Shown one piece after another: positions 9,357 to 62,634 of a stretch of 64,000 nt of DNA. Position 1 is the stretch's first letter; each line of letters opens with the position of its first letter. The position numbers and the translations under genes were made by a program. A model generated the notes under the pieces. That model saw only the letters and a program-made list of their open reading frames with translations. It ran no database searches and was not told the DNA's origin. Where the stretch lies: contig CM097885.1 of NCBI GenBank assembly GCA_044892525.1, positions 244,900,001-244,964,000 on the forward strand, given 5' to 3'. Source of the DNA: Schmidtea polychroa (taxonomy: Eukaryota).

Positions 9357-9360
<4 letters not shown>

Positions 9361-9428
<68 letters not shown>
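9361..9428. repeat. (AT)n microsatellite
   Basis: Pure AT run of about 34 units. Confidence 0.95.
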
Positions 9429-9431
<3 letters not shown>

Positions 9432-14775: not shown

Positions 14776-14793
14776 ATCCCGGCTGAGCCCCCA
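14776..14793 (-). promoter_or_regulatory. Primer-binding site, tRNA-Pro-like
   Basis: Minus strand TGGGGGCTCAGCCGGGAT, 7 nt from the LTR; 2 mismatches to the canonical tRNA-Pro PBS TGGGGGCTCGTCCGGGAT. Confidence 0.8.
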
Positions 14794-14800
14794 AAAATCA

Positions 14801-16455: not shown

Positions 16456-16458
16456 ATA

Positions 16459-25262: not shown

Positions 25263-25711
25263 ATGAATAATAATAATTACATAAAAATTTTACCAGTAGA
25301 ACCATATAGAGGAGAGCCTGAAAAGTTCGACGATTTTTTCACTGAGATCGCTCAGTATGCAGAAGCTTGTGGTTGGACATCTGATGAGTTAAAAATGAGA
25401 ATCCCACTATATTTAAAAGGTTATGCGTTACAGGCATACAATAACTTAGAATGCAAAGGAAATAATTTTGATCAACTCGTAAGATATCTGAGAGCAGAAA
25501 TAGTAATCAATAGCGATTTACAAAAAATAAATGTTCAAAAATTTAGAAACAGATATCAAGGTACTAGAGAATCAGTTGGTGAATATGTATATACAATTAC
25601 GGAGTTTGCGAAAAAGGCATTTGGTGCAGGCGAGCACACAGCAAAATTAATTGAGGATCAGTTTTGGAATGGTATACAAAAATATTTATATAAAGCATTA
25701 ATTATGGTAGA
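25263..25711 (+). pseudogene. Truncated Gag N-terminus
   Basis: LPVEPYRGEPEKFDDFFTEIAQYAEACGW...RIPLYLKGYALQAY aligns by eye with the element B Gag (LPVKAFSGDPGEFPEF...RLPIYLKGLAREKY). It is cut at about 25712 by an unrelated insert. Confidence 0.85.
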
Positions 25712-26346
25712 TAGCGGCGTATTTACCTGTAGGCAGATTAGGCATTTGCCTAGGGCCTCGGATTTATAAGGGCCTCCAAAATCCAAAAAAAAAATTATAA
25801 TTTTTTAAAAAAAAAAAAAAACAAAGTCGTAGCATTTCAGATTTTAAACTTTAACAGTTTTAAAATTTTCAGAGTTAAAACCTTTTTGGGCCTCAATTTC
25901 TATAAGTAAAAGAATTTGCACATATTCAAAAAGGAAAAAATAACAAATAGGATAAAAGCAAAATCCAAGCAAGGTTTGAATTTTTATATTTTGAATATAA
26001 TATATTTTATTTTGTAAAGGCCTACTAATTTTATTTTATAAATTGAATTTGAGGCCCCACGAATAGGTTTTAAACTCTGAAAAATTAAAAAAAAAATTAC
26101 AAAAAAAAACAATAGTCCGTAGCATTTCAGATTTGAAACTTTTTATTTACAAAATAAAATTGGTAGGCCTTTAAATACAAAATAAAATTATATGATACAC
26201 AAAATAGAAATATAAAAATTCAAATAGGAAAAAACAACAACCAAGCAAGCTTTGAATTTGTATTTGTATTTTGTATATTTCTTTTCCAAAACAGAAAATG
26301 CATATGCAATTTCATTTCATTTATTGTTTGAATTTTAACGGCCCAG
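25712..26346. mobile_element. MITE-like insert replacing the interior of element C
   Basis: Abrupt loss of Gag homology at TAGCGGCGTATTTACC. Internal GGCC-rich repeats and an imperfect end TTAACGGCCCAG; no TSD found. Confidence 0.45.
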
Positions 26347-27411
26347 GGAGGAATGTTAGATGATGAGGGTAGGCCCATCACTACATTTACCCTAGACAAA
26401 TACTATAGGACAGGGCCCAAAAAATATAGAGTGATAGCGTAGATAGATAGATGTTCCAACAAACAACCCAATTCCAGGCAAACCAATTCAATCAAACGAT
26501 CTGCTTATTTATGTGGAGCCGAGGTTAAACAGATGAGCCAGAAAATTCAAAATATTGATTCAAAATATTGACAATCATGTGTTGACTAAATTCATTATTT
26601 ACTTTATGCATCCTGTGTCTTTTGTGACTATTCTTTATTTTATTTCGTTATTGGTGTATATAGTAATCATTTTTATTCTATAGAATTTTGTACATATTTT
26701 TGAGTAGATTGTTAATTTTATTTAATATATCTTTCTGTATACATATTTAATATTTTTATAAAAGGGTAAATTAAATCATTAATAATTAGTTTTATAAGTA
26801 AAGATAAATAATATAACAATAAATTTTAATTAACTCTTAATTCAATAACAATAAAGTTTAATTAATTTTTAATAAACAGCTGAAAATATTTTTGGAAATT
26901 AATAAGTGTCTTAAAAAACACTTTTAAAATGAAACACTTGTGAAATAAAATAGAATTATAAGTATGAAAATAATAATAAATTAAATTATAAGTATTATTA
27001 AATAACAGCTGCCCAAAAAATCTGTATAAATAGCGACAAAAAATTAGTTTTAGTCGCCCAAAAATCTTGCGAAAAAAGCTCTTATTCAAAGGTTAATCCT
27101 TCGAATAAATTAATAATCGAATCAGCACAGAACGATTCACATACTAAACGAAACATACTAAGGTATAACACGCATATATAACAAATAACAAATACATATA
27201 TCTTAACAAGCATCTTAGTAGAAGGAATTGATAAATAATTGTTAACACTCTTGGAATTGGAATTTGTGTAGATTTGGTAATTTTTGATCATAATAAATTT
27301 TTATATACACTTATTTGTTCTGTTTTGATGTATATATAAGAACCAGCAAGTTAAGTGTTCCCGAATATCGAGACCTCAACATTTGGTGCCGCGAACCGGG
27401 ACTTTAATATT

Positions 27412-28340
27412 AACAGAGAAAATCCCTTTCTGCGATCAGTAAAATAAAACCACTTTAAACTAATACATCGATCAGTATTTGATGAGAATGTTGCCACCTT
27501 TAAATATACATTCAATAAAATATGAACTTAGCTAAATAAATGTTGAAGTTTTGATAATAATTAAACTATTTCAAAGTGGCGACTACAACAACAAACTCAA
27601 GACAACTGCAGTAACTTGACCTATTCTTTATTCTTATTACCAATTTTAATTTAAATAGGTTATAGTTGTTTTATACAAATTTTTAGTTATTTATTGTGTA
27701 AATTTTTATTTACAAATTTCGTTTTTACATTATGTTATATTTTCAATTTAAATAATAAATGATTTTTATTACATTCTTTTTCCAAACTTTGATATTTAAA
27801 TTTAATTTAAGTATTGCATTATTCTTTACATCAATATTTATAGATTTGTTTTAATTTTATAACCTTTTTTATTTTTAAGTTAAATAATAATTCTTAATTT
27901 TTACTGAAAGTTATTATTAATCTTTATTTGATAATTTATTCTGATATTCATTTTATATATGCATCAATGTCATTTTAAAATAATCTCACAATTATTTAGA
28001 CAAATTAATTACATGCAGAACAATATTTCATCAGTTGCTGCTAATAGCATGTACCATCAAAATAGCATAGGAAGTTTAGCCAGTGTTTTTAATGCAATAC
28101 AAACACCAAATTCCCATTTTATTAAAAAAGATAATAATGAAGCACCTTTAAATTTAATTTCTCATTCAAATAATTTGTGTAATGAAACAGCTGGTCAAAT
28201 TAGTATTGGGAGCATAGTTGGTCGTACTCCGGTTACTCCTCACACTCCTTCTACTCCTATGATTGATATAGAAATTGTGATGCCTACTCCTCAGTTACAG
28301 TAAAATGTCTAGAATTGATTTTATTGCTTAATATAAATTA
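27412..28340 (+). pseudogene. TBP: Partial TBP duplicate (upstream region, N-terminal exon and next intron; lacks the conserved core)
   Basis: Direct near-identical copy of 61310-62240. Encodes MQNNISS...TPVTPHTPSTPM..IVMPTPQLQ and stops just before the acceptor of the core exon. Confidence 0.88.
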
Positions 28341-42179: not shown

Positions 42180-43268
42180 TGTTAGGTTCGATGGGTATGT
42201 CTTCGAACTAACACAAAAATGTTCTATCTGACTCCACGTAAATAATTTATGCGCGTAGGTATAAATAAACAAGAAATATGATTTAAATATTTATTTTTTT
42301 TTAATTAAAAGATTATTCACACGTTTAAATAGATATATATATATAGGTACACCACGCTGCTTTCTCTAAGTATAGAAAACGGTTATTCAAACCGCCCTGA
42401 AGAGTGTTACTAAGTATCAAGGCTGGCCCTAAATGCGCCAACAGCCCGATATAGGTGAAAGGAAAAAGAGAACGGGACAATCACCAAAATTTACGCTATA
42501 GAGTTAACCCAGAAATTGGTTAACTCTTTTCAAATAGTTATTGATAACGACACAACACAAAAATACGTGCTGACGTTATGATATCCCTTATTTGAAATTA
42601 CTTAAATTTGTTAAAATATAAACCGATTTGAAAATTACTTATAACTATTTAAATAATGATAAATACTAACTGATTTAATATCTTTACCAAATAACGTTAT
42701 AATAGATAATCCACAAAATTTGCTTTCGATCCAATATTTCCAATACAAATTCTTCAATTAGATTGTCGATAAGACTAAATTCCCAAAATTCCAAAACTAA
42801 ATTTTCCTTTAATCGATGAAAATTATGCCAACTGTCACTTCGCCGAAAATTAGTTTACGATAAAACCAAATTTCCCAAAATTCCAAAACTTGACGAGAAT
42901 TAGTTGGTTGCTAAAAATAGAATTGACTTCTTCTTCTCTAATTTCAGACACTGCGGTTTTTTGCCTTCTCACTTCCTCCTTCCTTCTAATTTTTATCTAT
43001 TATTTATACTAATTTATTTTACGTAATTCTATTAATAGTAATTGTTTAATTACTATTTTTATTATATATTTTAAATAATTTCTATAATTCTATTTTTAGT
43101 AATTATTTATTACCAATTATATTTTAGTTTTAATTTTAGTATTTACTTTCTATTTTTGGTAATTTTAAAATACTATTTTTATTTTAATCCTAATTTTGGT
43201 AATTAATTATTATTTTATTTATTATCTAATTTCGAACGTTCATTTCCGGTTCCTACTGAACCCCAACA
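42180..43268 (-). repeat. 3' LTR of element B (1089 bp)
   Basis: Matches 55953-57054; PPT adjacent. Confidence 0.96.
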
Positions 43269-43280
43269 TGTCTTCCCCCT
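43269..43280 (-). promoter_or_regulatory. Polypurine tract of element B
   Basis: Minus strand AGGGGGAAGACA immediately before the 3' LTR. Confidence 0.8.
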
Positions 43281-43504: not shown

Positions 43505-45667
43505 CTAGTATTTTCTCCTTTTCATGACCTTGGCACTTTCGTTACGGATCCTTTGTTCTACAATGTCAGGTCTGTAACTGACCACCAAAGTCTCCCGTGT
43601 ACTTACCTCTTTGTACACAATTGAGGAGATGATATATGAGCCCTCATTAGCCTCCAATACTCCGTAATCGGGGAAATTGGATACGGCTACTTCATGGATT
43701 GGGCCTCCGTCGTATTCCTTGATACGCGGTTTCCATTTGCTGTCGGGTCTCTGCCACCAACTAGGATCTTCTCTGTCGAGATCTTCCCGTATTTTGATTG
43801 AGTTGCCCCTTCCGACGAACTCGCCTTCCTTCACGATGATCGGCTCTCCTGTAATCGTGGGTTCACTCTTTGTTGCCAATATCTTGGTCAACGCGGGATC
43901 TGGTGGCTGATAGTGAGTTTCTAGGAGATCGTCATCCTCATCCTGGATGGATATCCTAGGCATTTTCTTTTTCGTACTCTTAGGAATCTCCTTTTTCCTT
44001 TTTGCGGAGATAGGGACAGTTTTCTCCTTGTCCTCTTTCTGGGGGAGTTTCTCCGTTGTTTTCTTTTTAAACTTCAAATCTTGTAGCTTAAGTAATGGTG
44101 CTACAGCTTGGGGTAACGTTCCTCCTTCTGCTCCTTGTTTGGGTTCACCCAACGGGGCCAATGCTTTCAGGATCTTGGTGACCCGTTCAACTAACTTTTC
44201 TGCTGGCTGTGGTTTGTCTATTTCCATTTTAGCCGAATTCACCACTCTACCGTCATTGGTAAGGGTGACTTGGAGGCAGTTATCGTCTGCACTCTCACAA
44301 GTGGCATAGTCGTCTTCATCAGCAATTGAAATGGCTGGCGGCGACAAGGAATCTTCTTCCACTATTTTCAACAACTTTGACCTGGGGATATCTTCTTTCA
44401 CATAGCTCTCCATAGCTAGAGGTTTCTGCCTGCTTGAGGTTCCGGGTTCCATCTGCTTTATTTGTGAAGACACCACCTCTTTCCGGGTGTCTGGTGAAAT
44501 GTCATCAACCCAGATATCTCGTAAATTGTCGTAAATCTCCTTAATGGTTGTGACATCATTCTCCGTTTGTAGGTCCGAGAAGTGATGTGCCTCTTTACCG
44601 GTGACTGCTTTTGCTAGATATGCCAAACGGTAATACCCGTTGCATTTCTTTAGTTCCCTACTTTCGAGGCATTTAGCTGCGCCTAACTCACGAATTCCGA
44701 GTGCGCGCTGCATTGGGAATCTGATTACTTCTAATAAGTCCTTTACTAGTAATCCCACGATGATCTTCCCATCGCAGATTTTTCTAATTCTTTCGGCACA
44801 GTCTTCTCCGTCGAACTGTCCTGTTATTTGTTTCTCGGTCATACCATGCGCATGCGATTGGTAATGTTTGACCTGTGCTCTGGGGGTGACTCTCGTGTTG
44901 AGTATTAGATCACCATTGAAGTGTGAGATCGAGATGGCCACGATTGCCGGTTTCAAAAATTGTCGTAATGTAGCGTAGTGAGCTGCTACGAAGATGGTGA
45001 GGTTATCCTCTTGTCTAGGGTCCATGCGCTGTCTAACGAAAGACTTGAATGTTTTAATGTCGTTATCGTTGACATTATATGTCCAGTTTGGGTCATTAAC
45101 CCATCTGGTTTGTGTTTCTCTGTGAGGTTCCAGAATTTCCATTGCTATGATGGTATCTATACCTTCACATAACAGTGAGATGTTCTTTTCCCTTCCATCC
45201 CCGTTTTCTATCTCGAGGGTTGTGTGCTTTTGCAGCAAAATGGGGTTTGTGGCGCCAGGAACATAAACCGTAAATGGTTTGTTAATGGCGTGTATCCACA
45301 GGTGGTTGGTCAGACTATGTCTGCCAAACTCAGGCATGACATCGGTGAGCCTAATACTACCGTTATGCTTACCCGGGATTCTTGAGATGATCATTTGACG
45401 CTTTGGGGCCTCGTCAAATTTAAAATTATTGGGTATGCCTGAACAATGACCGTAAAACCAGTGCCTTTGGCCTTTTCTACTTTGCTCCATAACCTGCTTC
45501 TCCAGGTTTTTATAAATAAGTTTTTCTTTTAGTAAGGTTGTAGCACGTATAATGCTATGTTTTCCTTGATATTGGGATATTGGGTGGCTCTGCATTCCTG
45601 AAATAAAAATCATTAACCATAATATCAGATATACTGATATGCCATAATAGGCTAAAAAGATATGCAT
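43505..45667 (-). CDS. ORF3 accessory protein with a degenerate DEDDh (REX4/ISG20-like) exonuclease domain
   Basis: Intact 720-aa ORF between pol and the PPT. ISISHFNGDLILNTRVTP..VKHY...HGMT...GKIIVG...RLAYLAK...ENDV resembles the REX4-like fold. Confidence 0.7.
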   Translation of the reverse strand: MHIFLAYYGISVYLILWLMIFISGMQSHPISQYQGKHSIIRATTLLKEKLIYKNLEKQVMEQSRKGQRHWFYGHCSGIPNNFKFDEAPKRQMIISRIPGKHNGSIRLTDVMPEFGRHSLTNHLWIHAINKPFTVYVPGATNPILLQKHTTLEIENGDGREKNISLLCEGIDTIIAMEILEPHRETQTRWVNDPNWTYNVNDNDIKTFKSFVRQRMDPRQEDNLTIFVAAHYATLRQFLKPAIVAISISHFNGDLILNTRVTPRAQVKHYQSHAHGMTEKQITGQFDGEDCAERIRKICDGKIIVGLLVKDLLEVIRFPMQRALGIRELGAAKCLESRELKKCNGYYRLAYLAKAVTGKEAHHFSDLQTENDVTTIKEIYDNLRDIWVDDISPDTRKEVVSSQIKQMEPGTSSRQKPLAMESYVKEDIPRSKLLKIVEEDSLSPPAISIADEDDYATCESADDNCLQVTLTNDGRVVNSAKMEIDKPQPAEKLVERVTKILKALAPLGEPKQGAEGGTLPQAVAPLLKLQDLKFKKKTTEKLPQKEDKEKTVPISAKRKKEIPKSTKKKMPRISIQDEDDDLLETHYQPPDPALTKILATKSEPTITGEPIIVKEGEFVGRGNSIKIREDLDREDPSWWQRPDSKWKPRIKEYDGGPIHEVAVSNFPDYGVLEANEGSYIISSIVYKEVSTRETLVVSYRPDIVEQRIRNESAKVMKRRKY

Positions 45668-45790
45668 GAGTCTTCTAAAAGATCTACATATGCTGAATTT
45701 TAATGCTACCTGGAGCTCTACGTAAATATAGATTTTAATATATATATAAATATTTATATATGATTTTTCCCTCGGGGGAGTCTGTAATTG

Positions 45791-48700
45791 TCATAATTGC
45801 GACATCAGTACTCCATCGTAAGCCCTTATGGCTTGTCTAAAATATAGCTTGGTCCAAATACCCATAGCTATCAGTGTAGTTACTAGCAATAGGACGGCTG
45901 ATACCGTAATCCATACCCCTATGGGTACTTTCAGGATATATCCTGTATTAAAGTTTGTGATGGCATTACAATCACAACAGTTTGTCAAGTTTGGAGTCGT
46001 TGGACAAGATATTTGTTTGATCGGTGGCAACTGTCTAAGATGTTGCCACATCGTGGGATGTATCACCATGTTTTCTCTAACTACTTTTGGGGGTATTTCC
46101 GTTATTACTGGCTGTTTCAAAGGTAATATCTCCTCGAATACCTCGAACCACCTATCGTCCTCCCGTTTCCTCGGACTATAGTATATAACTAGAACCGAGT
46201 ATTCTACTGACTGATTTAGATACCTTTCTTGGGAGGGAGAGTTCTGGTCTAACCATAATGTTCCTCTCGTGGTTGATCCGTCTAGAATGCTGATTTTCAC
46301 CTTCTCCTCCCTGTTAATTCGCTGACTAAACTTTACTTTATCCCTTCCGTAGGATATCGATATGCGATTTGTGAAATCCGCCGTCCGTAGGATCCAATTT
46401 GATACGTGATAGGTATACCAACCATTCCGATATAACCTTGATGCTGCGATATGCAGTTTATAATCCGTCTCGGCTTTTAAGTCATATAATTCCCACTCTT
46501 TTTCTTCTGAATCGAGCTGGCGGACCCGTAAGTACTTGTTGTAGAAATGTAAATTGAACTTTGTAGCATTATCGCACGTTGTGAGTATGCTAATTCCATG
46601 ATACGTTCTTATAAAATGTAAGTGTTCCACTTGCATAGCCATCGGCTGAAAATAGGCCTTTCTATCCCTTTTTGCCATTGCCAAAGTCATCATACAGCTT
46701 ATTATCAGCAAAAAGGTTACCGATTTTGGAACACCCCTTGATCTCAATGGGTATCGGTGTTCTTGTGGTTCTTCGGTAGTGTTTGGTTTCACTTGTTTCT
46801 CTGGTGCTCTTACTTTTGAATTTCCAGAGATTCCTTTTGTTGAGATTTCGCACTTTTTACACCGATTAGCATGCACCATTATTGGTTCTGCTTTTCTGTT
46901 GGCTACAAGTTGTAATATGAGATTTGTGTCTGTGGTTCTCAATACCTCATATGGCCCTTTGAAATTGCGCATGAGTTTTGGTGATAAGCCTTTCTTGTTA
47001 TAATGACTTTCCAACATCACCTGGTCTCCAACCAATATGCCATGATCCTTGGCTTTTCGGTCATGATAATCTTTGGATGCCTCCTGATTATATTTTATAC
47101 TGAGGCCTGCTCTAGCCCATGCTTCCTGCATTCTTTCCCGCATTTCCATTAGATAATCTTGCTGATCCAAGTACTGTGTTGCTTTAGGAAAAAACAACAG
47201 ATCTACTGGCATTTTACTTTGTCTCAAATACATTAGGTAAAATGGTGTTTCACCTGTTCCTTCGTGTACTGCATTTCTATATGCAAATAAACAGGATGGA
47301 ATGTGGATATCCCAATCCGTTTGCCCTGAATTTACATATGATGCTAACATATTAGCTAATGTTCCATTAAATCGCTCTACTAGCCCATCCGTCTGTGGGT
47401 GATATGGGGAAGTGTTCAACTTTAAAACTCCGAAATAATCATTTATTCCTTTGAGCAAATTACTCATGAAATCAGCTCCCCTATCCGTTAATAGCTTCGT
47501 AGGTACTCCATACCTAAAGACAATTTGTTCAACGAAAATTCTAGCTATCGTATCAGCTTTGTGATTAGGCATCGGGTAGGCTTCTGGCCACTTAGTCAAG
47601 TAATCACAGAACACTAAGATGTACTTGTTTCCGCTATTGGATTCTTTAAATGGCCCCAACACGTCCATTGCCGTCATTTCCATAGGTGTAGATGGTATTG
47701 GCATCGGCTTCATTGGCACGTGTGGTTTCTTTCCGGTATTTCTTCTGGTGATACAGATCTTACATGTCTGACACCAGGTTTTAACCTCTTGTTTCATGCC
47801 GGGCCAAAAATATTTTTGTTTTAACCTTGACAATGTTTTTCTGGATGACAGGTGGCCTCCTAAGGCTCCATCGTGATACTGCAACATGAGTGCTTCACGG
47901 TATTTCTTAGGGACCATTACAACATTGTCTCTTACATCTGAATATTTGACTAATCCTTCCTCCAGCACAAACTTGTCCTTATTCTTTTCCCAGTATTTCG
48001 TGAATTCTGTGGGCACGTATTTCGCTTCTAAGGCTTGTCGAATGACATTGATTTCTTCGTCAGCTTTTTGTGCCTCCATTAAATCAGCTAGCCGGTTGGC
48101 TTCTCGAGTCAGTGTGAAGATAGTCCCTTCGAGACGTCCTTCCTTCACATCTTCTGCCTCCTCCTCCTGGTCCATTCTCGATAAAGCATCTGCATTTCCA
48201 TTGTGATCTCCTTTTCTATAATGGATTTCTATGTCATATGGCTGTAAAATTAATGCCCATCTGACCAGTTTTGATGTATCCATTGTATGTTTCGTCAACC
48301 ACTGTAATGGTCTATGATCGGTATACACTATGATCTTTCGACCCCATAGATAAGTCCTAAACTGGGTTATAGCATACACAATTGCTAAAGCCTCTAGTTC
48401 TATCACTGCGTAGTTTCTTTCATGCGGTTTTAATCCTCTGCTAGCGTATGCAATTGCATACTCATCTCCTAGGTCATCTCTCTGACCTAGCACAGCACCT
48501 ATGCCCCGAGTGCTGGCATCTGTCATAACCAAAAATTGTCTCTCAAAGTCTGGAAATCGCAATATAGGTGGCTTGATGAGTTTTTCCTTGAGCATATCAA
48601 ATGCTTCTTGCTGTTCTGTTCCCCACACAAATTTGACATTTTTGCCTTCTAACTGCGTGAGTGGAAAAGCTATAACCGAAAAGTTTCTAATGAATTTTCT

Positions 48701-49118
48701 GTAGTATCCAACTAGACCTAAAAACCCTTTGATATGTTTAACGGTTTTAGGCTCCGGGAAATTCTTTACCTTTTCGACATTAGCTGGGTCGGGTTTAACC
48801 CCGTCTCGTGATATGATATGGCCAACATATACCACTTCTGGTTCGGCCCATTTACATTTGGTCGGTTTCACTTTCATGTTGGCGTTAATCAACCTCTTGA
48901 ACACATCTTCCAAATGTTCCAAGTGTTTTTCCAAATTTGGCGAGAATACTATAACGTCGTCAATGTATACCATCGCATGATGTACATCCATGAGCATCAA
49001 ATTCATTGCTCTTTGAAATGTGGCTGGAGCTCCGGTGAGTCCAAATGGCATTACGTTATATTCGTAATGACCCATACTCGTAGAAAACGCTGTTATTGGT
49101 ATAGTCTCATCTTTTAGC
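45791..49118 (-). CDS. Polyprotein part 2: RT core, RNase H, integrase, C-terminal membrane protein
   Basis: MPFGL, YIDD, TDAS, ELEALA, HHCC, D-D-E (AMD, TDRG, VERFN), GPY. The frame continues upstream of the Met as FYQIKLKDETIPITAFST. Confidence 0.95.
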
Positions 49119-52100
49119 TTAATTTGATAAAATCCCTTTTTGGGCGTCCATTACTGAGAAGAACCTAGCGTTTCTCATGCGTCCATAGATATAATCTAAC
49201 AATGGCAATGGATGGCTATCTTTGCATGTTGCTTCGTTAACCATGCGATAGTCGTTACATAATCGTACTGATCCATCCTTCTTGGCCACCACTATCATTG
49301 GTGATTGATATGGTGATTTACTATGCCTGATTATGCCATGTTTTAACATCAGTTTCACCTGTTTATCTACTGATTCCTCCAGACTGAATGGAATACGGTA
49401 TGGTCTCAACTTTATAGGTTTTGTATTGGTGAGAACAATCTCATGTTCTAACAAGTTTGTCTTTCCCAGATCATATTCATGTTTCGCGAATACCTGGTCA
49501 TATTTCCTCAATAACATATTTACTTGAATATTTTCTTTTCTAGTTAGCACTTTGCTGTTTGCTGTAGGTGCATCGTAGTACTCAATGTCTGGATCTCTTT
49601 CTTCTGCCTTTACGGTGAGTATTGACCCTTCTCCCGTAGCTTGTGGTTCGTTTTGTTTCCAGATTCTGCCCACTCTGGTATCTGGATATAAGTAAAGTGG
49701 TTTAATGTCCAGATTGGCTACCCTGATTGGTATTCTGCCATTGACTATTAAACCTACGCTATGCGTTACTGGTATATTGTATTTCTCCGAGAATTTTTCG
49801 TTTGGTTCGAATACAACTTCACCTTCCCAATTATTGCTTGTAGCTACAAAGCAAACTGTTTCCGCTCTGGGTGGTATGATAGTTGTATGATCTATATAAG
49901 CCGTATCATCGTTGTAAATTTTCCTCTTTTTACCTCGTGCTCGGATTAACAATCCAGATGCACAATCGAATACTACTCCTCGTAGTCTTTTTAGGATGTC
50001 CATACCTAATAGACATTCGGCTGGGAGACTTCTCATCACTATGATGTCGTGATGGAGCTCCTGGTCACAAAGCTTAATCTGGCATGATAATAACCCTATT
50101 ACGTTTAATGAGGATCCGTTTGCTCCTGTTAATTTTACTCCTGCCGGTTTTGGCGATTGCAGTTCATGATGGTTTAACAATTTAGCTTCAATTATGGTAC
50201 CATCTGCTCCTGAGTCTATCACCGCATTAACTGTATGTCGGTTCACTCTTATTTTTATCATTGGCTTTTTATCCAAGTTCACTGGGTTGTTGACCATCAA
50301 GATAGTATCGTGCGATATACCGATTGTATTTGCCCTCGTTTGTTCTGCTTCCAGTAATTCAGGATCACTCAGTTGAGGATTATACTCTTTGAATTTAGCT
50401 TTAATTGACTCTAACGCTTCCTTTGGATAGTGCACTTTAAGTAATTCTGGCAATGTTGAGCATGTCAAATTATTAAATATGGTATCTTCACCGATTTTCC
50501 ATTGGTGTCGTCCTGTTCTGAGTGTTGTTTCCCTCGAGTGTTCCCGCCCTTCGTTTGGTGCGGATGGTAAACTCCTCAAAGTTGGCAATTGTACGTATCT
50601 TGGACTTCTCTTGAATCTGGGTGACCTTATGTCGAATTTTTGGTCGGAACTGTCATATTCTCCTTCTGAGGACTGTTTTCTCACATAGATTTCCTTTGAT
50701 TGGTCATATGGAGGAAGATATTCCTTGAATCTCGATTTTCTTTGTTGCTGATTCGGTTTTTTGTTGTAGTTCTGTTTTCGTGATTGATTTGATCTTGAAG
50801 ATGTCTCACGAGAGCCTCCATTACCTCCTCCCTTTGAATTGTTATCGTCCCGATAACTCGAATACTCCTCCATTTCTGTTCCAATTACTTCATGTTTGAC
50901 CAAATGTTTCTGTCTAATTTCTTTAATTTCTTTTCTGTGATGTTTGAATAATGCAAACTCTGCACACATAGGACATAGTCCTAATAGCAGTTTCCATGAC
51001 CATCCTCCAATTTTGAATATGCTATATGTTGACATCAGTTGTGTAATTATCAGCTTTAAAATTACAAATATTGCGTAAATTCCTGAACATCCCGCGACGA
51101 AAATACCAAAATTGGTGAATCGTCCCCATATTTTCATCATTACGTTCTTTGCTGCTTCTTTATAGTGTTCCGGTCCAAATAATAAATTGTAATCTGGTCG
51201 TATCAAATTATCATGATAAATTGTTCTTATAATTTCCGTGATACCTCTTTCTCTGATTTGTGGGAATAGCAATGTCCTCCTTGCTTCCTCGATATCGTCG
51301 GGAGTATAGATCCCTCTTTTTGCTAATTCATCTAGTGACTTGAATTCCAGATTATCTTTTAATTTAGTCACCTCCAAGGTCTCTACCCGTTGTGTAGATG
51401 GTTTTCTTTCCGGCAGAGATATCCACATGTCATTTATTTTGTATAATGGTGATATTGCCGGGTTGCATATAGCTGGTTGAGGTTTAGCGTTTTCCTCAAG
51501 TAACTTTCTGGTTACTGGCATAACAAATCTCAATTTTCCTTGGTAAGATACTGGCAGTTCTAGAGTGCATTGATTAAATCTGGCTAATTGTACTTCAACT
51601 GGTTTACACTCATAGCTATATATAGCTTCTCCCATGATTCTGCCAAACATTCCATCTTCCAATAACATTGGAGTAACCAACTCTGGGTTAACGATAGATA
51701 TTGCTAATCTATTTCGGACTATTTCACGATTTAGCTTACAATCGTTTAGTATCACTTCTTGATACATATCTTGCATTTGTCCTTGCAGATCATGATATAA
51801 ATAATCTACCTTATTATTTATATAATTCGTGATTTTGATATCCTTTACATGTAGGACCTTGGAATTCCGGATATATTCTCTGGACAGGAAAATTCCTTTG
51901 TAGTTCGTCTCGTATACTCTTTTCCCACATTTAGTCCTTTTATCTTTTCGGACAAATCGAATTGCTTCCGTCTTGTCTTCCGATATCAATACTAGAGGTG
52001 TGTTTTCCTCTCCGATATCTTCCTTCTCTTGTTTGTTGATTTTCTTCAACGTTTTTGCTTTATCCCAAACCTTTTCTGGATTCTGGGAGTCCCGATATTT

Positions 52101-55100
52101 AGTTCCATTTAATTTTCTAAAAGGAATTTTCTTGAGGAAAGCCAACTCACAATGATCTCTCATTTGTTCGTAAATTAACGTAGTGGTTCCCGTTTTACAA
52201 CTACCGAACTTGGCATTGCATTGCGGATGTGCCATCAATTTTCCTGTGGCCACATCGAATGTTCCCTCGTATTCTCGTAGCTCCACTGAGTAATCTTCTA
52301 TGTCTACCACATAGGAAACTAAATTGCTACCGCGAATTTTCTTTCTACCTTCGCATGTTCCGTCTGAAGCGATTGTTCCTCCTCGGGTGATTGTTATTCC
52401 CAAGGTTTTCCCAATTTCTGCTGAAATTGATACCTCGTTGTCTATCCTCACACTTCCTTTTCGAAATGCATCTAAGCAATCTTCGGGCATTATGTTTACC
52501 GGCCTTGGTATTAATGTTGCGGATAGAAAAGCAGAATAGCTATTACTACCGCAATAATATTCGAACGTAGCTCTCTGAACTCTACAATCCTTTATCGTGG
52601 TTCTATAAAATTCACTCTCTTGGTAGACATAATATTCTACCTTTTCCCCTTGATGAACCTTCTCGGGATACGCCTCTTTGCACTCAATTGCATCTACTAG
52701 CGAATATACCCGAGATAGTTTAGGGTTTCCACAGTCAAATACTGTTAATGAATTTGTTTGTTTTAATATGCCCATCATCACTAGGAACATCAGGATCATG
52801 CTTGTCATGTTTCCTGTGCCTGGACTACCATTATTTATGGCTTCTTCTACGACTTCAAATCGTGGTTTTGGAATCGTTTCTTTTTCCCAAAATTTGTTTA
52901 CGGTCATCCATACCTCCAGGTAATAATCTACCATTTCGACTATTTGATCGATTTCTCGTTCTATAAGCCTTTTATCATCCCCTATCCGGGCCAAGGCATT
53001 TTGAATTAACAATGATAAAGATGTTACCACTTTCCCTCTTGTTAACCCTTGCTGCACGAATGCTTCTATGACATCCTGGGTATCTCTTGTTGTTACATCT
53101 TTGGATACTCTGTCCATTGTCTTCTTGACCTCTTTTGCTATTTTCTTTACTTCGATCCCCTTGATTTTTGGAATTCTCCATTCGGGCCTGATAATCCCGA
53201 TCATTTGTTGTATACGTTGCCACAATAACGACCTTTCTGCTGTTGTCTCATCTCCCGCCTGGTCGTCCATTTCTTGAGCTATCCCTGCTAATGTTTTTAA
53301 CTGAATTTTCCGAATCGTTTCTGGATTTAACTGCTCCTTGGGTGGAGGTTTCATCTGATCCTTTCTAGGACGTCCTCGTGCATTTTTTTTCACTTTCTCC
53401 GGAGGTTTTTCATTCTCCAGATTTGTTACTGCTTGTGACGTAGTAGCTCCTACGTTTTTTTCTCCTGGGTTTAATCTGATATATTCTGAGAAGTAATCTT
53501 CCTCGTCAATGTCCACCATTTGACAGGGATTAATTTCCTCTAGTCTTATTTCCTCAATTTCTTCCGCAATTTGGTTTGCTATATCTGGCAGTCTCATTAA
53601 TGACCACTGGGACTCTGGTGGAGTTACTGGGATGATCATTACCGTGGTTGTTGCCAGCGGTAGACAACCCACATCCACTAAATATTCATCGTCATCCACT
53701 TGCCTGCCATGGACCATTATCAGGAATATACCTGTAGTTTGATCGGTGGCAATTACATCTCTCCTCAATATTTTAACCTTGATATAGCAATTATAAATCA
53801 TTGTTAATGGTTCTTTTCCCATCATTCGCACGTCTAGATTAATGTTGCCTTGTCTATCAGGCTGACTTCGGATAGCTTTCCCATTTTTCCTCATCAGCGC
53901 TTCAATTTGCGTCTGAAATGGGCTTGTTTCCTTTACCACTGGTAGTATAAGTGGAATTATTGCTTCCAATAAATCTACTGGTATTCGTAATACTAACATC
54001 CAGTCCAGTATTTCCTTTATAGTTTTACCATCTCGTGGGGATTTCTGCAATTCCAACCCTAGTCGCTGGGTTAATTGTTGAGTTTCCTCCAATCTCTCGA
54101 TTTCCATCTGAGTAATCAAGAATACGCTATCTTGATCCATTACTGCCACTGGCTTTGGTGCTCTCTTTGCTGTGAGCTTCGTCACTCTACCTGGGAGTAT
54201 CCCATTCTGTAGAAGTGTTTGGTTTGCTTCTAATTTTATTCCACATAAGTATAAGTCATATCCTTGATGCTTAATACTTGTCAATGTTTCCGTTAATTTA
54301 TCGGCTCGACTTCTTACATTTATATCGAGGTTATACTCTTTATCCTGTGGGAGTTTTATATTGAGCTGGGCATCTTGGAGATCCCACTCATGTTCCAAAA
54401 GTTTTCCTAATTTCCTTAGGATTTTGTACGTGTCGTTATGATACTTTGGATCATCTTCGACCTGCGATATCAGTTTTACTACTGTATCGATTTCGTGAAT
54501 TTTAATTTCTGTTTCTCCCAATTTTCCCAATTGTCTGGCCAGCTTCTGCTGGTACTCATATCTGGAATCCACCAGTTTTAAACATTTTGTTAGGGTATCT
54601 GACCCTTCTTTTACCTTTGCTTTCCCTGTCAAGGTTCTATCGAACTCGCTTAGTATGGTGGCCATACTAGGTTCATCATCGGAACTCTCCTCTGATTCCG
54701 TTTCCTGAAGGTCCTCTCTAACGGAGTCCTTTTTTCTGAGATACTCATCTCTTCCAACTTCTACCATGAAGATGGTGCCTTCTTGGTCGGTCAATCTAGC
54801 CAACCTATTCTTTTCTTCCTGGATTTCCATTTCCAGTTGTTGCAGATACGTTAACCCTTGATCCTGGTTAACCATGAAAGTTGTCTTAGACTTGTTCACA
54901 TTACCCTTATCGGTATTTTTATTGAACTGACTCGTGTTTCCACTCTGGTTCTGAGGACATGACCTCATCATATGTCCGAATTTCCCACATCCGTGACATT
55001 TTATCTTTCCTGATGAATTTACATCATCTCTTTTGATTGTACTAAAATTATTGCTGTTCTGAGGACTTCTAGTCTTGCAGACCGCAGCAACATGTCCCTT

Positions 55101-55853
55101 TCGCTTACATTTTTCGCATTGCAAATTCTGCACTCTACAATTTTCCGCACTGTGGTTATTCCGTCCACATTTGGTACATTGTATACTTTTACGATTGTCC
55201 ATAATTTTCCTACTGGTACAATCTTTCGCTATATGCCCTTTTCTATGGCAATTGAAACACTCTACCGGTGTTCTTTCACTGTTTACCAGGAACATGGTTG
55301 ACTTTTCCAAGCTGCTTTCAATTACGACAGCTTTCCGTGTCAATTCGTCAAAATCGTCGCTAGTATGTAATATTAGAGCGTTCCTCATTGTAGGAGTAAG
55401 TCCTGCCCATAGCTGATCCTTAACTAACAATTCTGTTGGCTTTGCCCATGTGGTTTTTGGTCCAAATGCTCTTTCAGCAATTAAAGATAGCTGGTGTGCA
55501 AATTCCCCCACATGTTCATTGGCATTCTGTTTTCGATGGTAAAATTGTTGTCTAAATATTCTTCCCGCATCTCCGGGCAATATTCGAGCAGTCATTTGTT
55601 CTCTCATTTCGGCCCATGTTTTCGGTACTTGAGCAACTGGTAATGCCATAATGTCATTATATTTTTCTCTTGCCAGCCCCTTCAAATATATAGGCAGCCT
55701 TTGTATCATGATATTATCTGGATAGGCGTATGCTTTGGCCATCTGATAATATTCAGACATAAACTCTGGGAATTCTCCCGGATCACCGCTGAATGCCTTT
55801 ACGGGCAGAGCGGGATATCTGGCAAATGCATTTACATTAGCTTCCTCTGCCAT
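49119..55853 (-). CDS. Polyprotein part 1: Gag (4 CCHC), 2 ubiquitin-like domains, AT-hook, class-III-like envelope glycoprotein, aspartic protease, RT N-terminus
   Basis: 2244-aa ORF with four CX2CX4HX4C motifs; signal-like MTSMILMFLVMMGIL then LTVFDC, a Cys-rich ectodomain and a TM; protease VIDSGA; RT start KKDGSVRLCNDYR..N...KDSHPLP. Confidence 0.93.
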   Translation of the reverse strand: MAEEANVNAFARYPALPVKAFSGDPGEFPEFMSEYYQMAKAYAYPDNIMIQRLPIYLKGLAREKYNDIMALPVAQVPKTWAEMREQMTARILPGDAGRIFRQQFYHRKQNANEHVGEFAHQLSLIAERAFGPKTTWAKPTELLVKDQLWAGLTPTMRNALILHTSDDFDELTRKAVVIESSLEKSTMFLVNSERTPVECFNCHRKGHIAKDCTSRKIMDNRKSIQCTKCGRNNHSAENCRVQNLQCEKCKRKGHVAAVCKTRSPQNSNNFSTIKRDDVNSSGKIKCHGCGKFGHMMRSCPQNQSGNTSQFNKNTDKGNVNKSKTTFMVNQDQGLTYLQQLEMEIQEEKNRLARLTDQEGTIFMVEVGRDEYLRKKDSVREDLQETESEESSDDEPSMATILSEFDRTLTGKAKVKEGSDTLTKCLKLVDSRYEYQQKLARQLGKLGETEIKIHEIDTVVKLISQVEDDPKYHNDTYKILRKLGKLLEHEWDLQDAQLNIKLPQDKEYNLDINVRSRADKLTETLTSIKHQGYDLYLCGIKLEANQTLLQNGILPGRVTKLTAKRAPKPVAVMDQDSVFLITQMEIERLEETQQLTQRLGLELQKSPRDGKTIKEILDWMLVLRIPVDLLEAIIPLILPVVKETSPFQTQIEALMRKNGKAIRSQPDRQGNINLDVRMMGKEPLTMIYNCYIKVKILRRDVIATDQTTGIFLIMVHGRQVDDDEYLVDVGCLPLATTTVMIIPVTPPESQWSLMRLPDIANQIAEEIEEIRLEEINPCQMVDIDEEDYFSEYIRLNPGEKNVGATTSQAVTNLENEKPPEKVKKNARGRPRKDQMKPPPKEQLNPETIRKIQLKTLAGIAQEMDDQAGDETTAERSLLWQRIQQMIGIIRPEWRIPKIKGIEVKKIAKEVKKTMDRVSKDVTTRDTQDVIEAFVQQGLTRGKVVTSLSLLIQNALARIGDDKRLIEREIDQIVEMVDYYLEVWMTVNKFWEKETIPKPRFEVVEEAINNGSPGTGNMTSMILMFLVMMGILKQTNSLTVFDCGNPKLSRVYSLVDAIECKEAYPEKVHQGEKVEYYVYQESEFYRTTIKDCRVQRATFEYYCGSNSYSAFLSATLIPRPVNIMPEDCLDAFRKGSVRIDNEVSISAEIGKTLGITITRGGTIASDGTCEGRKKIRGSNLVSYVVDIEDYSVELREYEGTFDVATGKLMAHPQCNAKFGSCKTGTTTLIYEQMRDHCELAFLKKIPFRKLNGTKYRDSQNPEKVWDKAKTLKKINKQEKEDIGEENTPLVLISEDKTEAIRFVRKDKRTKCGKRVYETNYKGIFLSREYIRNSKVLHVKDIKITNYINNKVDYLYHDLQGQMQDMYQEVILNDCKLNREIVRNRLAISIVNPELVTPMLLEDGMFGRIMGEAIYSYECKPVEVQLARFNQCTLELPVSYQGKLRFVMPVTRKLLEENAKPQPAICNPAISPLYKINDMWISLPERKPSTQRVETLEVTKLKDNLEFKSLDELAKRGIYTPDDIEEARRTLLFPQIRERGITEIIRTIYHDNLIRPDYNLLFGPEHYKEAAKNVMMKIWGRFTNFGIFVAGCSGIYAIFVILKLIITQLMSTYSIFKIGGWSWKLLLGLCPMCAEFALFKHHRKEIKEIRQKHLVKHEVIGTEMEEYSSYRDDNNSKGGGNGGSRETSSRSNQSRKQNYNKKPNQQQRKSRFKEYLPPYDQSKEIYVRKQSSEGEYDSSDQKFDIRSPRFKRSPRYVQLPTLRSLPSAPNEGREHSRETTLRTGRHQWKIGEDTIFNNLTCSTLPELLKVHYPKEALESIKAKFKEYNPQLSDPELLEAEQTRANTIGISHDTILMVNNPVNLDKKPMIKIRVNRHTVNAVIDSGADGTIIEAKLLNHHELQSPKPAGVKLTGANGSSLNVIGLLSCQIKLCDQELHHDIIVMRSLPAECLLGMDILKRLRGVVFDCASGLLIRARGKKRKIYNDDTAYIDHTTIIPPRAETVCFVATSNNWEGEVVFEPNEKFSEKYNIPVTHSVGLIVNGRIPIRVANLDIKPLYLYPDTRVGRIWKQNEPQATGEGSILTVKAEERDPDIEYYDAPTANSKVLTRKENIQVNMLLRKYDQVFAKHEYDLGKTNLLEHEIVLTNTKPIKLRPYRIPFSLEESVDKQVKLMLKHGIIRHSKSPYQSPMIVVAKKDGSVRLCNDYRMVNEATCKDSHPLPLLDYIYGRMRNARFFSVMDAQKGILSN

Positions 55854-55931: not shown

Positions 55932-55949
55932 ATCACGTCGGGCTCACCA
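55932..55949 (-). promoter_or_regulatory. Primer-binding site, tRNA-Trp
   Basis: TGGTGAGCCCGACGTGAT, 3 nt from the LTR; 1 mismatch to the canonical tRNA-Trp PBS TGGTGACCCCGACGTGAT. Confidence 0.88.
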
Positions 55950-55952
55950 AAA

Positions 55953-57054
55953 TGTTAGGTTCGATGGGTATGTCTTCGAACTAACACAAAAATGTTCTAT
56001 CTGACTCCACGTAAATAATTTATGTGCGTAGGTATAAATAAACAAGAAATATGATTTAAATATTTATTTTTTTTTTAATTAAAAGATTATTCACACGTTT
56101 AAATAGATATATATATATATATATATATATAGGTACACCACGCTGCTTTCTCTAAGTATAGAAAACGGTTATTCAAACCGCCCTGAAGAGTGTTACTAAG
56201 TATCAAGGCTGGCCCTAAATGCGCCAACAGCCCGATATAGGTGAAAGGAAAAAGAGAACGGGACAATCACCAAAATTTACGCTATAGAGTTAACCCAGAA
56301 ATTGGTTAACTCTTTTCAAATAGTTATTGATAACGACACAACACAAAAATACGTGCTGACGTTATGATATCCCTTATTTGAAATTACTTAAATTTGTTAA
56401 AATATAAACCGATTTGAAAATTACTTATAACTATTTAAATAATGATAAATACTAACTGATTTAATATCTTTACCAAATAACGTTATAATAGATAATCCAC
56501 AAAATTTGATTTCGATCCAATATTTCCAATACAAATTCTTCAATTAGATTGTCGATAAGACTAAATTCCCAAAATTCCAAAACTAAATTTTCCTTTAATC
56601 GATGAAAATTATGCCAACTGTCACTTCGCCGAAAATTAGTTTACGATAAAACCAAATTTCCCAAAATTCCAAAACTTGACGAGAATTAGTTGGTTGCTAA
56701 AAATAGAATTGACTTCTTCTTCTCTAATTTCAGACACTGCGGTTTTCTGCCTTCTCACTTCCTCCTTCCTTCTAATTTTTATCTATTATTTATACTAATT
56801 TATTTTACGTAATTCTATTAATAGTAATTGTTTAATTACTATTTTTATTATATATTTTAAATAATTTCTATAATTCTATTTTTAGTAATTATTTATTACC
56901 AATTATATTTTAGTTTTAATTTTAGTATTTACTTTCTATTTTTGGTAATTTTAAAATACTATTTTTATTTTAATCCTAATTTTGGTAATTAATTATTATT
57001 TTATTTATTATCTAATTTCGAACGTTCATTTCCGGTTCCTACTGAACCCCAACA
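55953..57054 (-). repeat. 5' LTR of element B (1102 bp)
   Basis: Matches 42180-43268; longer mainly through an (AT)n tract. Confidence 0.96.
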
Positions 57055-59290: not shown

Positions 59291-61912
59291 GAGAATACGA
59301 TTAATTTTTCGTACAGTTTTCTTTCGCGACATCGATCGATCGTTTTGAAACCAGTAACGTACGACGGATAAGTAATTGACACTCATCATATAAACATACG
59401 CTCGTAACTTGTCGATGCATGATCTATATCACAATTCGGACTGTGAACTTGGTGAGGAGTAGTCATAACACAGAGGCTCACTGTCCATCAGTTCCGACCT
59501 GCGTATACACTTCCAACTTGAACTATCATCACGGGTATACGTATGGGAAATCAGTGGTAAACCATGAAGGGTACTCGGAGGAAAAAACTGAGCATACAAA
59601 AAACGTCCGCAAGTATCCAACAAAATATATAATTTTATAAGATAATATTTTCCATACTTCATCAGTAATCCATTTGTTATTTCGGACATGTTATCAAGAT
59701 AATTTTACCACATTTTCTAATTTGTTTTTCGTTTGTAATTCGTTTTTAGATTGTACTTATGAATTTAAAACAACTTTTTGATGTTTGATTTATTGATTAG
59801 TTATTTTCTTCTCTTCACAACTGCTTCTCAGAATTCTGGAACAACACCCTCTGTAATATATATTACCTCCTCGTACTTATTTTGCTCACTTAAATGATTA
59901 TTCAATTTTATTATTTAGGTATTCTCAACATTATTAAAGAAATATAATAAATGCCAGCTGGAAATAATTATAATTATTTATTTTTCATTTACCGTAAAAC
60001 CTTTAAACAAAGTATAGATGATATAAAATTAACTTATTTTCTGTCAAATTTATTTTTAACTTATTTTTACTAAATAGTTTTAAAAACATAAATTAGAAAA
60101 ACTCACGAGCCTGCTAAGAGAATAAGTTTGCTAGATATGAAAAAAAATCCTATCCTATTTTGCGGATCATTGGAGAAAATTGGACAGTTTTTTCTTATAA
60201 GACAATTCAAATAAATAAGTCCATCATTTTTATGGAGTCATTAAAATTTTCGAACTAAAATTAGTCATGTTCAGTCAAATCTTGCTCTGAAAATGAATTT
60301 TTCTCTTTTTGTCATTACGGCGGGGAATAATTTTGTAACCTAAGTCACTAACGCATCAAATAGTTAGTAAATGAATTATAAATTATTAAATAAATTAGTA
60401 AATGAATCAAGTCATTTTCTGACAGGTTAAATAAATTCTTAAGTCACTAGTTTAAACTGGTTTTTCTTCGTCGTTAATCATAACAAATTTCCGTATTCTG
60501 GGATATACGAGGTAGATAGTATTACGAAGAATTGTCTCATCAATCGCCCATTAAGTGCTCTGTGTCTATGGACCAGTCCTGGTTTTATTGAGACCAATTT
60601 CCTTAGCAAATCAAACCCCAAATATTATCATCATCTTAGTTCTGGTAGTTCAAGGTGTTTTACTTTTCAAAATTTTAAGAACAATTTTATATAGTTCACT
60701 GAGAATGTAAGGTTGACTTGGTTCATCTGAAGTTTTAAGAAAAAAAATCATTCAATTCAATTTCATGGGTCTCAAGAACATTCACTCGCTTTCGTGAGAG
60801 ACAGAAATGTATGTGATGGAGTAGTAAATTAGGGACCAGCACTTCACGAAAAGTGTGCATGTTAGTAGAGATTCGTCTGTCACGATAATATTACATTATT
60901 GTGGTTGTTCTATTTTAGATATGCTCCCCATTCTGTCTGTAGCATTTACTAATGACTCGTGTTACGTTAAATGGAAAATGAAGTTCGAATGATCCATCAG
61001 ATGCATTGCTTCCCTACCCTACTATGAATAATGAAATAATGCAGGACTTCTTTCGTTTTTAGCAAAAAGCAATTGTGTAAAAAGAACTAATCGAAATAAG
61101 AGATTTAATAAAAGCAACTGACGAATAAATTGGTAAAAGATTCTAAAAAATCATTAAGGTAAAAACAGACAGAGGACAATGTAAATGTATAAGAAGAGTT
61201 ATGATACAAAATAAGAATGGTATAGACTATGAAGATAGTGATGACAACAAGCAATGAAGAGGAATATAGAATGTCTTTAACAACACCGTCTTGATCAGTT
61301 AGACGAGGGAACAGAGAAAATCCCTTTCTGCGATCAGTAAAATAAAACCACTTTAAACTAATACATCTATCAGTATTTGATGAGAATGTTGCCACCTTTA
61401 AATATACATTCAATAAAATATGAACTTAGCTAAATAAATGTTGAAGTTTTGATAATAATTAAACTATTTCAAAGTGGCGACTACAACAACAAACTCAAGA
61501 CAACTGCAGTAACTTGACCTATTCTTTATTCTTATTATCAATTTTAATTTAAATAGGTTATAGTCGTTTTATACAAATTTTTAGTTATTTATTTTGTAAA
61601 TTTTTATTTACAAATTTCGTTTTTACATTATGTTATATTTTCAATTTAAATAATAAATGATTTTTATTACATTCTTTTTCCAAACTCTGATATTTAAATT
61701 TAATTTAAGTATTGCATTATTCTTTACATCAATATTTATAGATTTGTTTTAATTTTATAACCTTTGTATTATTTTTAAGTTAAATAATAATTCTTAATTT
61801 TTACTGAAAGTTATTATTAATCTTTATTTGATAATTTATTCTGATTTTCATTTTATATTTGCATCAATGTCATTTTAAAATAATCTCACAATTATTTAGA
61901 CAAATTAATTAC

Positions 61913-62199
61913 ATGCAGAACAATATTTCATCAGTTGCTGCTAATAGCATGTACCATCAAAATAGCATAGGAAGTTTAGCCAGTGTTTTTAATGCAATAC
62001 AAACACCAAATTCCCATTCTATTAAAAAAGATAATAATGAAGCACCTTTAAATTTAATTTCTCATTCAAATAATTTGTGTAATGAAACAGCTGGTCAAAT
62101 TAGTATTGGGAGCATAGTTGGTCGTACTCCGGTTACTCCTCATACTCCTTCTACTCCTATGCTTGATAAAGAAATTGTGATGCCTACTCCTCAGTTACA
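61913..62199 (+). CDS. TBP: TATA-binding protein, N-terminal exon (start Met inferred)
   Basis: Ends TPVTPHTPSTPM..IVMPTPQLQ with a CA|GT donor, matching the TBP P-Q-L-Q-N junction; 42-bp intron follows. Confidence 0.8.
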
Positions 62200-62241
62200 G
62201 TAAAATGTCTAGAATTGATTTTATTGCTTAATATAAATTAG

Positions 62242-62589
62242 AAATATTGTATGCACTGTAAATTTGGGATGTAAATTAGATTTGAAATCAATTGCTCTTC
62301 ATGCCAGGAACGCTGAATACAATCCAAAACGTTTTGCAGCTGTTATAATGAGAATAAGAACACCTCGAACTACTGCTCTTATATTCTCGTCTGGAAAAAT
62401 GGTTTGTACTGGCGCAAAAAGTGAAGATGAAGCTAAATTAGCGGCTCGAAAGTTTGCTCGAATTATCCAAAAATTAGATTTTGATGCGAAATTTATGAAT
62501 TTTAAAATTCAAAACATGGTCGGTTCTTGTGACGTCAAATTTCCCATACGTTTGGAAGGTATATGTCTTTCACACACCCAGTTCGCTAC
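62242..62589 (+). CDS. TBP: TATA-binding protein core exon
   Basis: [60 protein letters not shown]...[17 protein letters not shown]. Confidence 0.98.
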
Positions 62590-62634
62590 GTTGGTTAATT
62601 AATTCTAACTATGATTTAATTTGATAATCGACAG

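Follow-up and report, generated by a model that had tools for sequence, protein, structure and literature searches.

The linker between Gag and Env of a planarian long terminal repeat (LTR) retrotransposon is a tandem duplication of one module, a helical domain plus a ubiquitin-like domain (UBL), within a single Gag-Env-Pol polyprotein. The element that hosts it, 14.9 kb long, lies on the minus strand of the DNA analysed here (the window: 64,000 nucleotides of Schmidtea polychroa, assembly GCA_044892525.1, contig CM097885.1, positions 244,900,001 to 244,964,000). Judged from its sequence, the element is of the Ty3/gypsy LTR type and a member of the flatworm GAG-ENV-POL errantiviruses, an assignment based on its LTRs, primer-binding site, polypurine tract, target duplication (4 bp, GTTT, flanking it on both sides), protease–reverse transcriptase (RT)–RNase H–integrase order and a gB-type Env between Gag and Pol. 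Its parts outside the linker are as follows:

55953..57054, minus strand: 5′ LTR (TG...CA), 98.5% identical to the 3′ LTR over 1102 columns
55932..55949, minus strand: primer-binding site, a TGG-starting stretch three bases past the LTR, presumably complementary to tRNA-Trp
54940..55853, minus strand: Gag, with the capsid immediately after the start methionine and then four CCHC-type knuckles
50904..52748, minus strand: gB-type (class III) fusion glycoprotein (PF24664, E 5.5e-87)
49986..50258, minus strand: aspartyl protease (PF13975, E 4.9e-12)
45791..49150, minus strand: remainder of RT, then RNase H, integrase and a C-terminal tail that has two hydrophobic segments
43505..45790, minus strand: accessory ORF3, weakly like the ISG20L2/REX4-type exonuclease fold
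43269-43280, minus strand: polypurine tract, adjoining the 3′ LTR
42180..43268, minus strand: 3′ LTR, pairing with the 5′ LTR at 98.5%

A single frame runs from the methionine at 55853 through capsid, zinc knuckles, linker, glycoprotein and protease to the start of RT; the window copy has a frame change inside RT near 49150-49119; in some other copies the frame stays open throughout, at 3366-3369 aa. Gag matched PF03732 (aa 55-129, E 0.0074) and PF00098 and has no N-terminal region of matrix size. Hydropathy places the transmembrane segment of the fusion glycoprotein near 51104. In frame after integrase (45794-46740, minus strand) are a second signal-like segment, about 250 residues of no known kind and a transmembrane segment; L045 and L114 have a related tail. 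ORF3, whose sole PDB match was 7yw5 (E 0.17), apparently lacks the catalytic acidic motif when read by eye and has homologues in the sister families L032, L114, L094 and L097. The Pfam scan of the element's three ORFs returned no MATH, BIR or ankyrin match. Copies of the linker gave at least 107 matches (107 scored out of 1386 candidates).

The surroundings of the element hold several further features. An exon of a ligand-gated ion channel subunit (PF02932; 40771-41829, plus strand) ends about 350 bases from the 3′ LTR, and the element probably sits in an intron of that gene or just beyond it. On the plus strand at 27412-28340 and 61310-62602, there is a TBP exon (PF00352), with a 931-base stretch duplicated at 98.6%. 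Another LTR element spans 175-16456, its 1.66-kb LTRs sharing 99.4% identity and its minus strand carrying a Gag-like frame; by eye, this Gag resembles that of a 28.7-kb Burro-like copy in the same genome.

The two modules are made up as follows:

54390..54593, minus strand: helical domain H1, three helices (2-36, 41-54 and 58-77 of the model), first half of module 1
54159..54374, minus strand: UBL1, beta-grasp, the faster-evolving copy (predicted structure and profile comparison)
54114..54149, minus strand: short connector linking the two modules, made of two strands in the model (158-161 and 166-169)
53865..54110, minus strand: helical domain H2, four helices, first half of module 2 (predicted structure)
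53622..53849, minus strand: UBL2, beta-grasp, the conserved copy, which groups with single-module families (predicted structure and profile comparison)

Profile comparison found H1 homologous to H2 (95.5%, E 1.5e-8) and UBL1 homologous to UBL2 (97.8%); the repeat unit is therefore a helical domain plus a UBL, about 160 residues long. A connector-like stretch can also be read by eye in the distant two-module families L031, L155, L157 and P0005. The first-pass annotation had proposed two ubiquitin-like domains in this linker with a helical segment between them. The two domains were borne out: the models have the beta-beta-alpha-beta-beta-beta order of the beta-grasp fold, and in a fold search they superposed on ubiquitin and SUMO. 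The helical segment is present too. A Bcl-2-like domain and an AT-hook just downstream of the modules had been missed. Membership of the ubiquitin clan appeared at family level and not in the window UBLs alone: the family profile of the UBLs matched the clan in a PDB profile comparison and 7/17 modules matched PF00240 at E up to 1 (best 0.0042), but UBLs scanned separately all fell below the PF00240 cut-off, and those of the window gave no PF00240 match in the Pfam scan. One UBL2 from a metagenome rose above the cut-off of PF00789 (UBX) over 33 residues, and its loop reads as the G47-K48 of ubiquitin. Because SUMO, ISG15 and ubiquitin tie in fold-search Z, the UBLs are not assignable to a sub-family. 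An acidic motif resembles, we presume, CIDE-N domains; PF02017 (CIDE-N) matched nothing in the genome, where its controls were equally silent, and it did not appear among the families listed in the Pfam scan of the modules.

Other searches gave little. With the family profile, the helical domain had no meaningful PDB sequence match (best E 0.086), and no Pfam family was found for it. As a single sequence, the window linker drew nothing useful from Pfam, PDB, phage genomes or single-sequence folding. Alignment searches for longer public homologues found none, which is a weak negative, and also missed the known relative P0013; 118 pattern matches in viral contigs yielded 0 confirmed cases.

The domains are conserved in related elements, every family read having at least one module upstream of the Bcl-2-like domain and Env, and many having two. 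Two modules were found in the window family, L031, L047/48/56/58, L049/54/59, L050, L051 and the L052 group, and also in P0002, P0005, P0009 and the contigs L152, L155 and L157 of one metagenome. One module was found in L090-L097 (8/8 with a UBL match) and, by reading, in P0006, P0007 and P0013. The Burro-like copy has one clear module and, upstream of it, two uncertain UBL-like stretches that were left out of the module trees; one of these matched PI3K_rbd at E 0.01 and Ubiquitin_4 at 0.19, the other nothing ubiquitin-like. P0013 is a public relative of 2296 aa in which a single module and Env are accompanied by several tandem aspartyl-protease domains. The window itself also contains an internally deleted copy of the single-module L090 family (23984-27407, plus strand) between LTRs 98.1% alike.

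In RT-RNase H trees, built without an outgroup, a branch separated the two-module families from both the single-module group and the Burro-like copy (support 96/96 for 19 rows, 93/94 for 10 rows). In module trees, the second modules clustered with the single modules and the first modules were long-branched. The eight first modules alone grouped with a support of 33/26; with the Burro-like module added to them, the split from second and single modules reached 89/87 on long branches, and another module tree gave the same split at 77/98 with module 1 of P0009 outside. The simplest reading suggested by these trees is one old duplication, after which the second copy kept the ancestral role. The UBLs had been described as captured. 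Any capture would be ancient and not recent, since the 11 UBLs compared share 8-24% identity with host ubiquitin; no donor gene was identified, and the pair itself is most probably the product of a duplication that took place in the lineage of the element.

Env and RT are missing from one derivative family (L052, L053, L057 and L060), in which 4/4 copies examined have an open frame that still encodes Gag, the two modules, the Bcl-2-like domain and the hydrophobic anchor. RT-RNase H had no match in these four loci or in L115, and the family is probably non-autonomous. It is multicopy, with a frame of 1323-1333 aa (239-4207 in L052) and an unrelated tail after the signal peptide.

The module stretch is under purifying selection, and module 2 is as constrained as the capsid. 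We compared 29 copies with the window and counted the variants common to at least two copies. These copies scored best among the 107 found when the module region was searched at protein level, a choice that biases the w of the modules downward, and with this bias the synonymous/non-synonymous counts were 12/1 in UBL2 (w 0.02), 19/2 in H2 (w 0.03), 13/8 in UBL1 (w 0.17) and 8/2 in H1 (w 0.07). The Bcl-2-like domain had 28/13 (w 0.12), the capsid 38/4 (w 0.03) and the N-terminal part of Env 59/3 (w 0.01). In L049, L050 and L052, which were picked by another query, w was 0.06-0.30 for module parts where dS was measurable and 0.23-0.38 for the linker; comparisons with L047 were saturated. These values bear on the idea that the modules are a folding aid or spacer, stable beta-grasp domains that keep a long polyprotein soluble or space its protease sites and have no specific partner. 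Variation in copy number and the drift of module 1 would suit such a role, but the w of 0.02-0.03 in module 2 does not, nor does a charged motif conserved among families whose RT-RNase H identity is just 48-59%. We regard it as the least probable of the readings considered.

The pattern of conserved residues speaks to what the UBLs contact. None of L8, I44, H68 and V70, the Ile44 patch of ubiquitin, is kept in any of the 11 UBLs (position 8 lies in a loosely aligned loop), and position 44 is variable (Y, M, K, T, R or Q). A C-terminal Gly-Gly occurs in 0/11, which upholds the earlier view that the domains are integral and that conjugation is unlikely. By contrast, G60 is kept in 11/11, and E54, K/R27 and G47 in 9/11 each. 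We take the conserved positions to lie near the N-terminus of the ubiquitin fold, where the helical domain would pack. The invariant face (positions 22, 27 and 52-61) probably contacts the helical domain or proteins of the element itself, and not host ubiquitin receptors.

The first-pass annotation had suggested that the UBLs recruit ESCRT, proteasome or deubiquitinase (DUB) machinery, that is, that they act as a canonical ubiquitin mimic, either a built-in late domain or a proteasome or DUB recruiter working through an Ile44 patch. The ubiquitin-like fold, the hydrophobic Tyr/Met at position 44 of window UBL1/UBL2 and the lack of a PPxY or PTAP motif conserved across families are compatible with this, and the available text of PMC2958808 describes Gag-fused ubiquitin without Gly-Gly that can stand in for a late domain. 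The same text makes budding by fused ubiquitin dependent on L8 and I44, and neither is kept in any of the 11 UBLs; canonical mimicry is therefore unlikely.

Between the modules and Env, the cassette continues with four further parts:

53400..53621, minus strand: acidic linker with low model confidence (pLDDT below 50)
53361..53378, minus strand: AT-hook-like RGRP motif, read from sequence
52880..53240, minus strand: Bcl-2-like helical domain (leave-out profile and family profile), ending just before the Env signal peptide
52749..52808, minus strand: hydrophobic stretch, the internal signal peptide of Env and putative tail anchor of the upstream cassette

The Bcl-2-like domain is a homologue of the Bcl-2 family (BH1-BH2 sequence), a relationship drawn transitively through its sister domains. 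A leave-out profile scored it at 40.5 bits, a score reached in 0/500 shuffles. The whole-family profile matched a profile of host Bcl-2 exons at 95.3% (E 2.4e-8), and the window domain with its nearest sister alone reached just 9.7%. Against PDB, the family profile found Bcl-xL, Bcl-2 and A1 at about E 1e-3, with a designed helical protein as top match. Sister domains matched PF00452 at E 9.6e-5 to 0.033, all below the cut-off (4/6 in one scan); the window domain alone had no Pfam match. The window family has degenerate BH1 and BH2 motifs, and the model of the region is unreliable (pLDDT about 40-55) and was not reported in fold searches.

The AT-hook is also present in L031, L090, L105, P0006, P0007, P0009 (PF02178, E 0.027) and P0013 and is absent from the L047-L061 families. 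Its presence in several families, with a helical pattern in the modules that by eye is like TFIIS-N (TND), raises the possibility of a nuclear or chromatin tether, in which the helical domain would bind integrase or a transcription factor and work with the AT-hook; a LEDGF-like built-in device is the comparison for this. The TND identity received no support from the PDB profile search, from PF08711 (25 genome matches, none in a frame or place listed for these elements) or from hhalign against 4 host TND sequences (0.1-0.6%, with a shallow profile). As the hook is missing in some families and the cassette ends in a membrane anchor, we consider a tether improbable.

In every alignment row that extends far enough, the hydrophobic stretch lies ahead of the point where the conserved Env domain begins; in the window element it is below the 19-residue hydropathy threshold. 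Our leading reading, held tentatively and partly by analogy, is that the H-UBL modules may be an assembly adaptor in a tail-anchored leader that couples the capsid to the Env-bearing membrane. In brief, the internal signal peptide would thread the polyprotein into the ER, Env entering the lumen while Gag and the cassette remain cytosolic and tied to the Env-receiving membrane. Signal peptidase would release Env, and the element protease would separate capsid and nucleocapsid at T-x-F-M/L-V type sites upstream of H1. What remains would be a tail-anchored leader of the form (H-UBL)2-linker-Bcl-2-like-anchor, with the modules as its folded, non-conjugated interaction units. These would link the matrix-less capsid to the Env-bearing membrane at assembly, a role comparable to that of the foamy-virus Env leader peptide.

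Candidate protease sites flanking the nucleocapsid are at 55298, 54884 and 54776. The motif occurs 6 times in the frame against 0.39 in shuffles, an enrichment that is circular because the motif was read from the same frame; one match is inside the inter-module connector and may be structural. We rank the assembly adaptor first because Gag has no matrix, every family read has a module, module 2 is constrained like the capsid and the Env-less derivative keeps the anchored cassette. Counting against it, families differ in their number of modules and module 1 evolves under far weaker constraint, a looseness that an ordered particle lattice would not necessarily accept, and the neighbouring domains (Bcl-2-like here; MATH, RING, ankyrin and BIR in Burro) are typical host-modulating cargo.

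That cargo points to the reading that ranks second, close behind the assembly adaptor: modulation of host cell death or the ubiquitin pathway. In cells expressing the element, a released cassette might dampen cell-death or stress signalling, with the Bcl-2-like domain at membranes and the H-UBL binding ubiquitin, SUMO or a death-pathway component through a non-canonical surface. The Bcl-2 homology is in its favour, as are the ankyrin repeats and RING+MATH ORF of the Burro-like copy in the same genome; the motifs of Burro include BIR, MATH, ankyrin and BCL2, and a review, in its available text, proposes meddling with apoptosis and ubiquitination (PMC6431247). Set against these, module 2 is constrained like capsid and Env, with no sign of rapid change, and the BH1 and BH2 motifs have degenerated in the window family. 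Such modulation is possible, if less probable than an assembly role. A bolder proposal, which we consider doubtful, joins the two: throughout the clade, the signal peptide of Env might double as the tail anchor of a Bcl-2-fold protein, with the helical+UBL module taking the place of matrix, and the resulting covalent leader from Gag to the membrane would both organise budding and keep cell death at bay. If true, enveloped-retroelement particles would here be built in a way for which our searches returned no description, and the helical+UBL unit would count as a new family of domains.

Ubiquitin and Bcl-2 sequences are also found in other mobile contexts of this genome. In a BEL/Pao-type LTR family (DUF1759 Gag, protease), two near-canonical ubiquitins, both ending in Gly-Gly, stand in frame ahead of Gag (L147 2467-6513, G000:C1:18604000-18613900; also L140, L148, L149 and L150), and dispersed copies of this family seem to account for most of the 150 ubiquitin matches in the genome listing. 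These ubiquitins are a recent, independent capture and, unlike the window UBLs, could be cut by host DUBs. Apart from the polyprotein-borne domains, dozens of dispersed, near-identical Bcl-2 matches lie in short frames (L077-L081, L099, L100 and others), many with one in-frame TAG; they are likely other mobile carriers or spliced copies.

Among ubiquitin-fold proteins, the module UBLs share with ubiquitin, ISG15, SUMO and Rad60-SLD the fold and the core residues G47, K/R27-D52, L50 and L56. They differ from clan members in their low identity to host ubiquitin, the absence of Gly-Gly and the Ile44 patch, and their constant fusion behind a helical domain. Pestivirus ubiquitin insertions have a role in polyprotein processing. 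These insertions (BVDV polyproteins) and, in the available text of PMC2958808, engineered Gag-ubiquitin fusions also place a ubiquitin fold in a viral polyprotein, but theirs is near-canonical ubiquitin, unlike the module UBLs. The foamy-virus Env leader, as described in the part of PMC3705266 available, is cytosolic, membrane-anchored and ahead of Env; its likeness to the cassette is by analogy alone.

Closest in kind are the planarian elements. In gene order, gB-type Env and size, the window element is the same as the Platyhelminthes gB-type errantiviruses, and the available part of PMC13524379 catalogues six Schmidtea GAG-ENV-POL elements of 14.5-18 kb, Smed_errantivirus_1-6. By eye, about 62 of the first 91 positions of the window Env match the Smed_errantivirus_4 Env row shown there, and rows 1, 2, 3 and 5 resemble L051, L047, L090 and L105. 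The word 'ubiquitin' occurs 0 times in the main text of that paper, and 'ubiquitin' and 'Bcl' 0 times in its supplementary file 1; its other supplements and figures may annotate the linker.

Burro (GYPSM1), a planarian gypsy element, is described in the available text of PMC6431247 as one polyprotein with Gag, a Ubi2/SUMO-like motif (PF11976) upstream of a BCL-2-like domain, an in-frame Env and then protease, RT, RNase H and integrase, the same order as here. The Burro-like copy in the same genome has a homologous module, AT-hook and Bcl-2-like domain, at 51% RT-RNase H identity to the window element. Burro is a giant of more than 30 kb with MATH, BIR and ankyrin, according to the same text, whereas the window element has 14.9 kb and 1.1-kb LTRs; in core order it is like a compact Burro, and in size and cargo it falls outside Burro. 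The review, as available, names one motif and no helical partner, whereas the window element has two well-formed modules. The earlier statement that no LTR retrotransposon with integral tandem UBLs was known is weakened by the single integral UBL published for Burro (PMC6431247, available text); of the tandem form and the helical partner we found no description in the literature covered (subscription papers, Repbase reports and figures being outside it). One integral UBL with BCL-2 was known; the doubled, conserved form with a helical partner appears to be new.

Planarian gypsy elements are abundant, and the window element is young, its LTRs being 98.5% alike. Burro is expressed on PIWI loss and abundant (PMC8532177 and PMC11410931, in the parts available), and in the available text of PMC6431247 the 30-kb element was judged hard to study and planarian gypsy elements had previously come under suspicion of interfering with ubiquitination and apoptosis. 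The present comparison makes the UBL-Bcl-2-Env cassette a shared core of compact 15-kb relatives as well, with a defined 160-residue repeat unit whose small, foldable domains open its function to expression, structural and pull-down tests. It also has a bearing on the route by which a matrix-less Gag gets to an Env-bearing membrane in GAG-ENV-POL elements. Its value is not the presence of a UBL as such, which Burro already had, but a small, conserved module, open to testing, that is central to a clade little studied so far.
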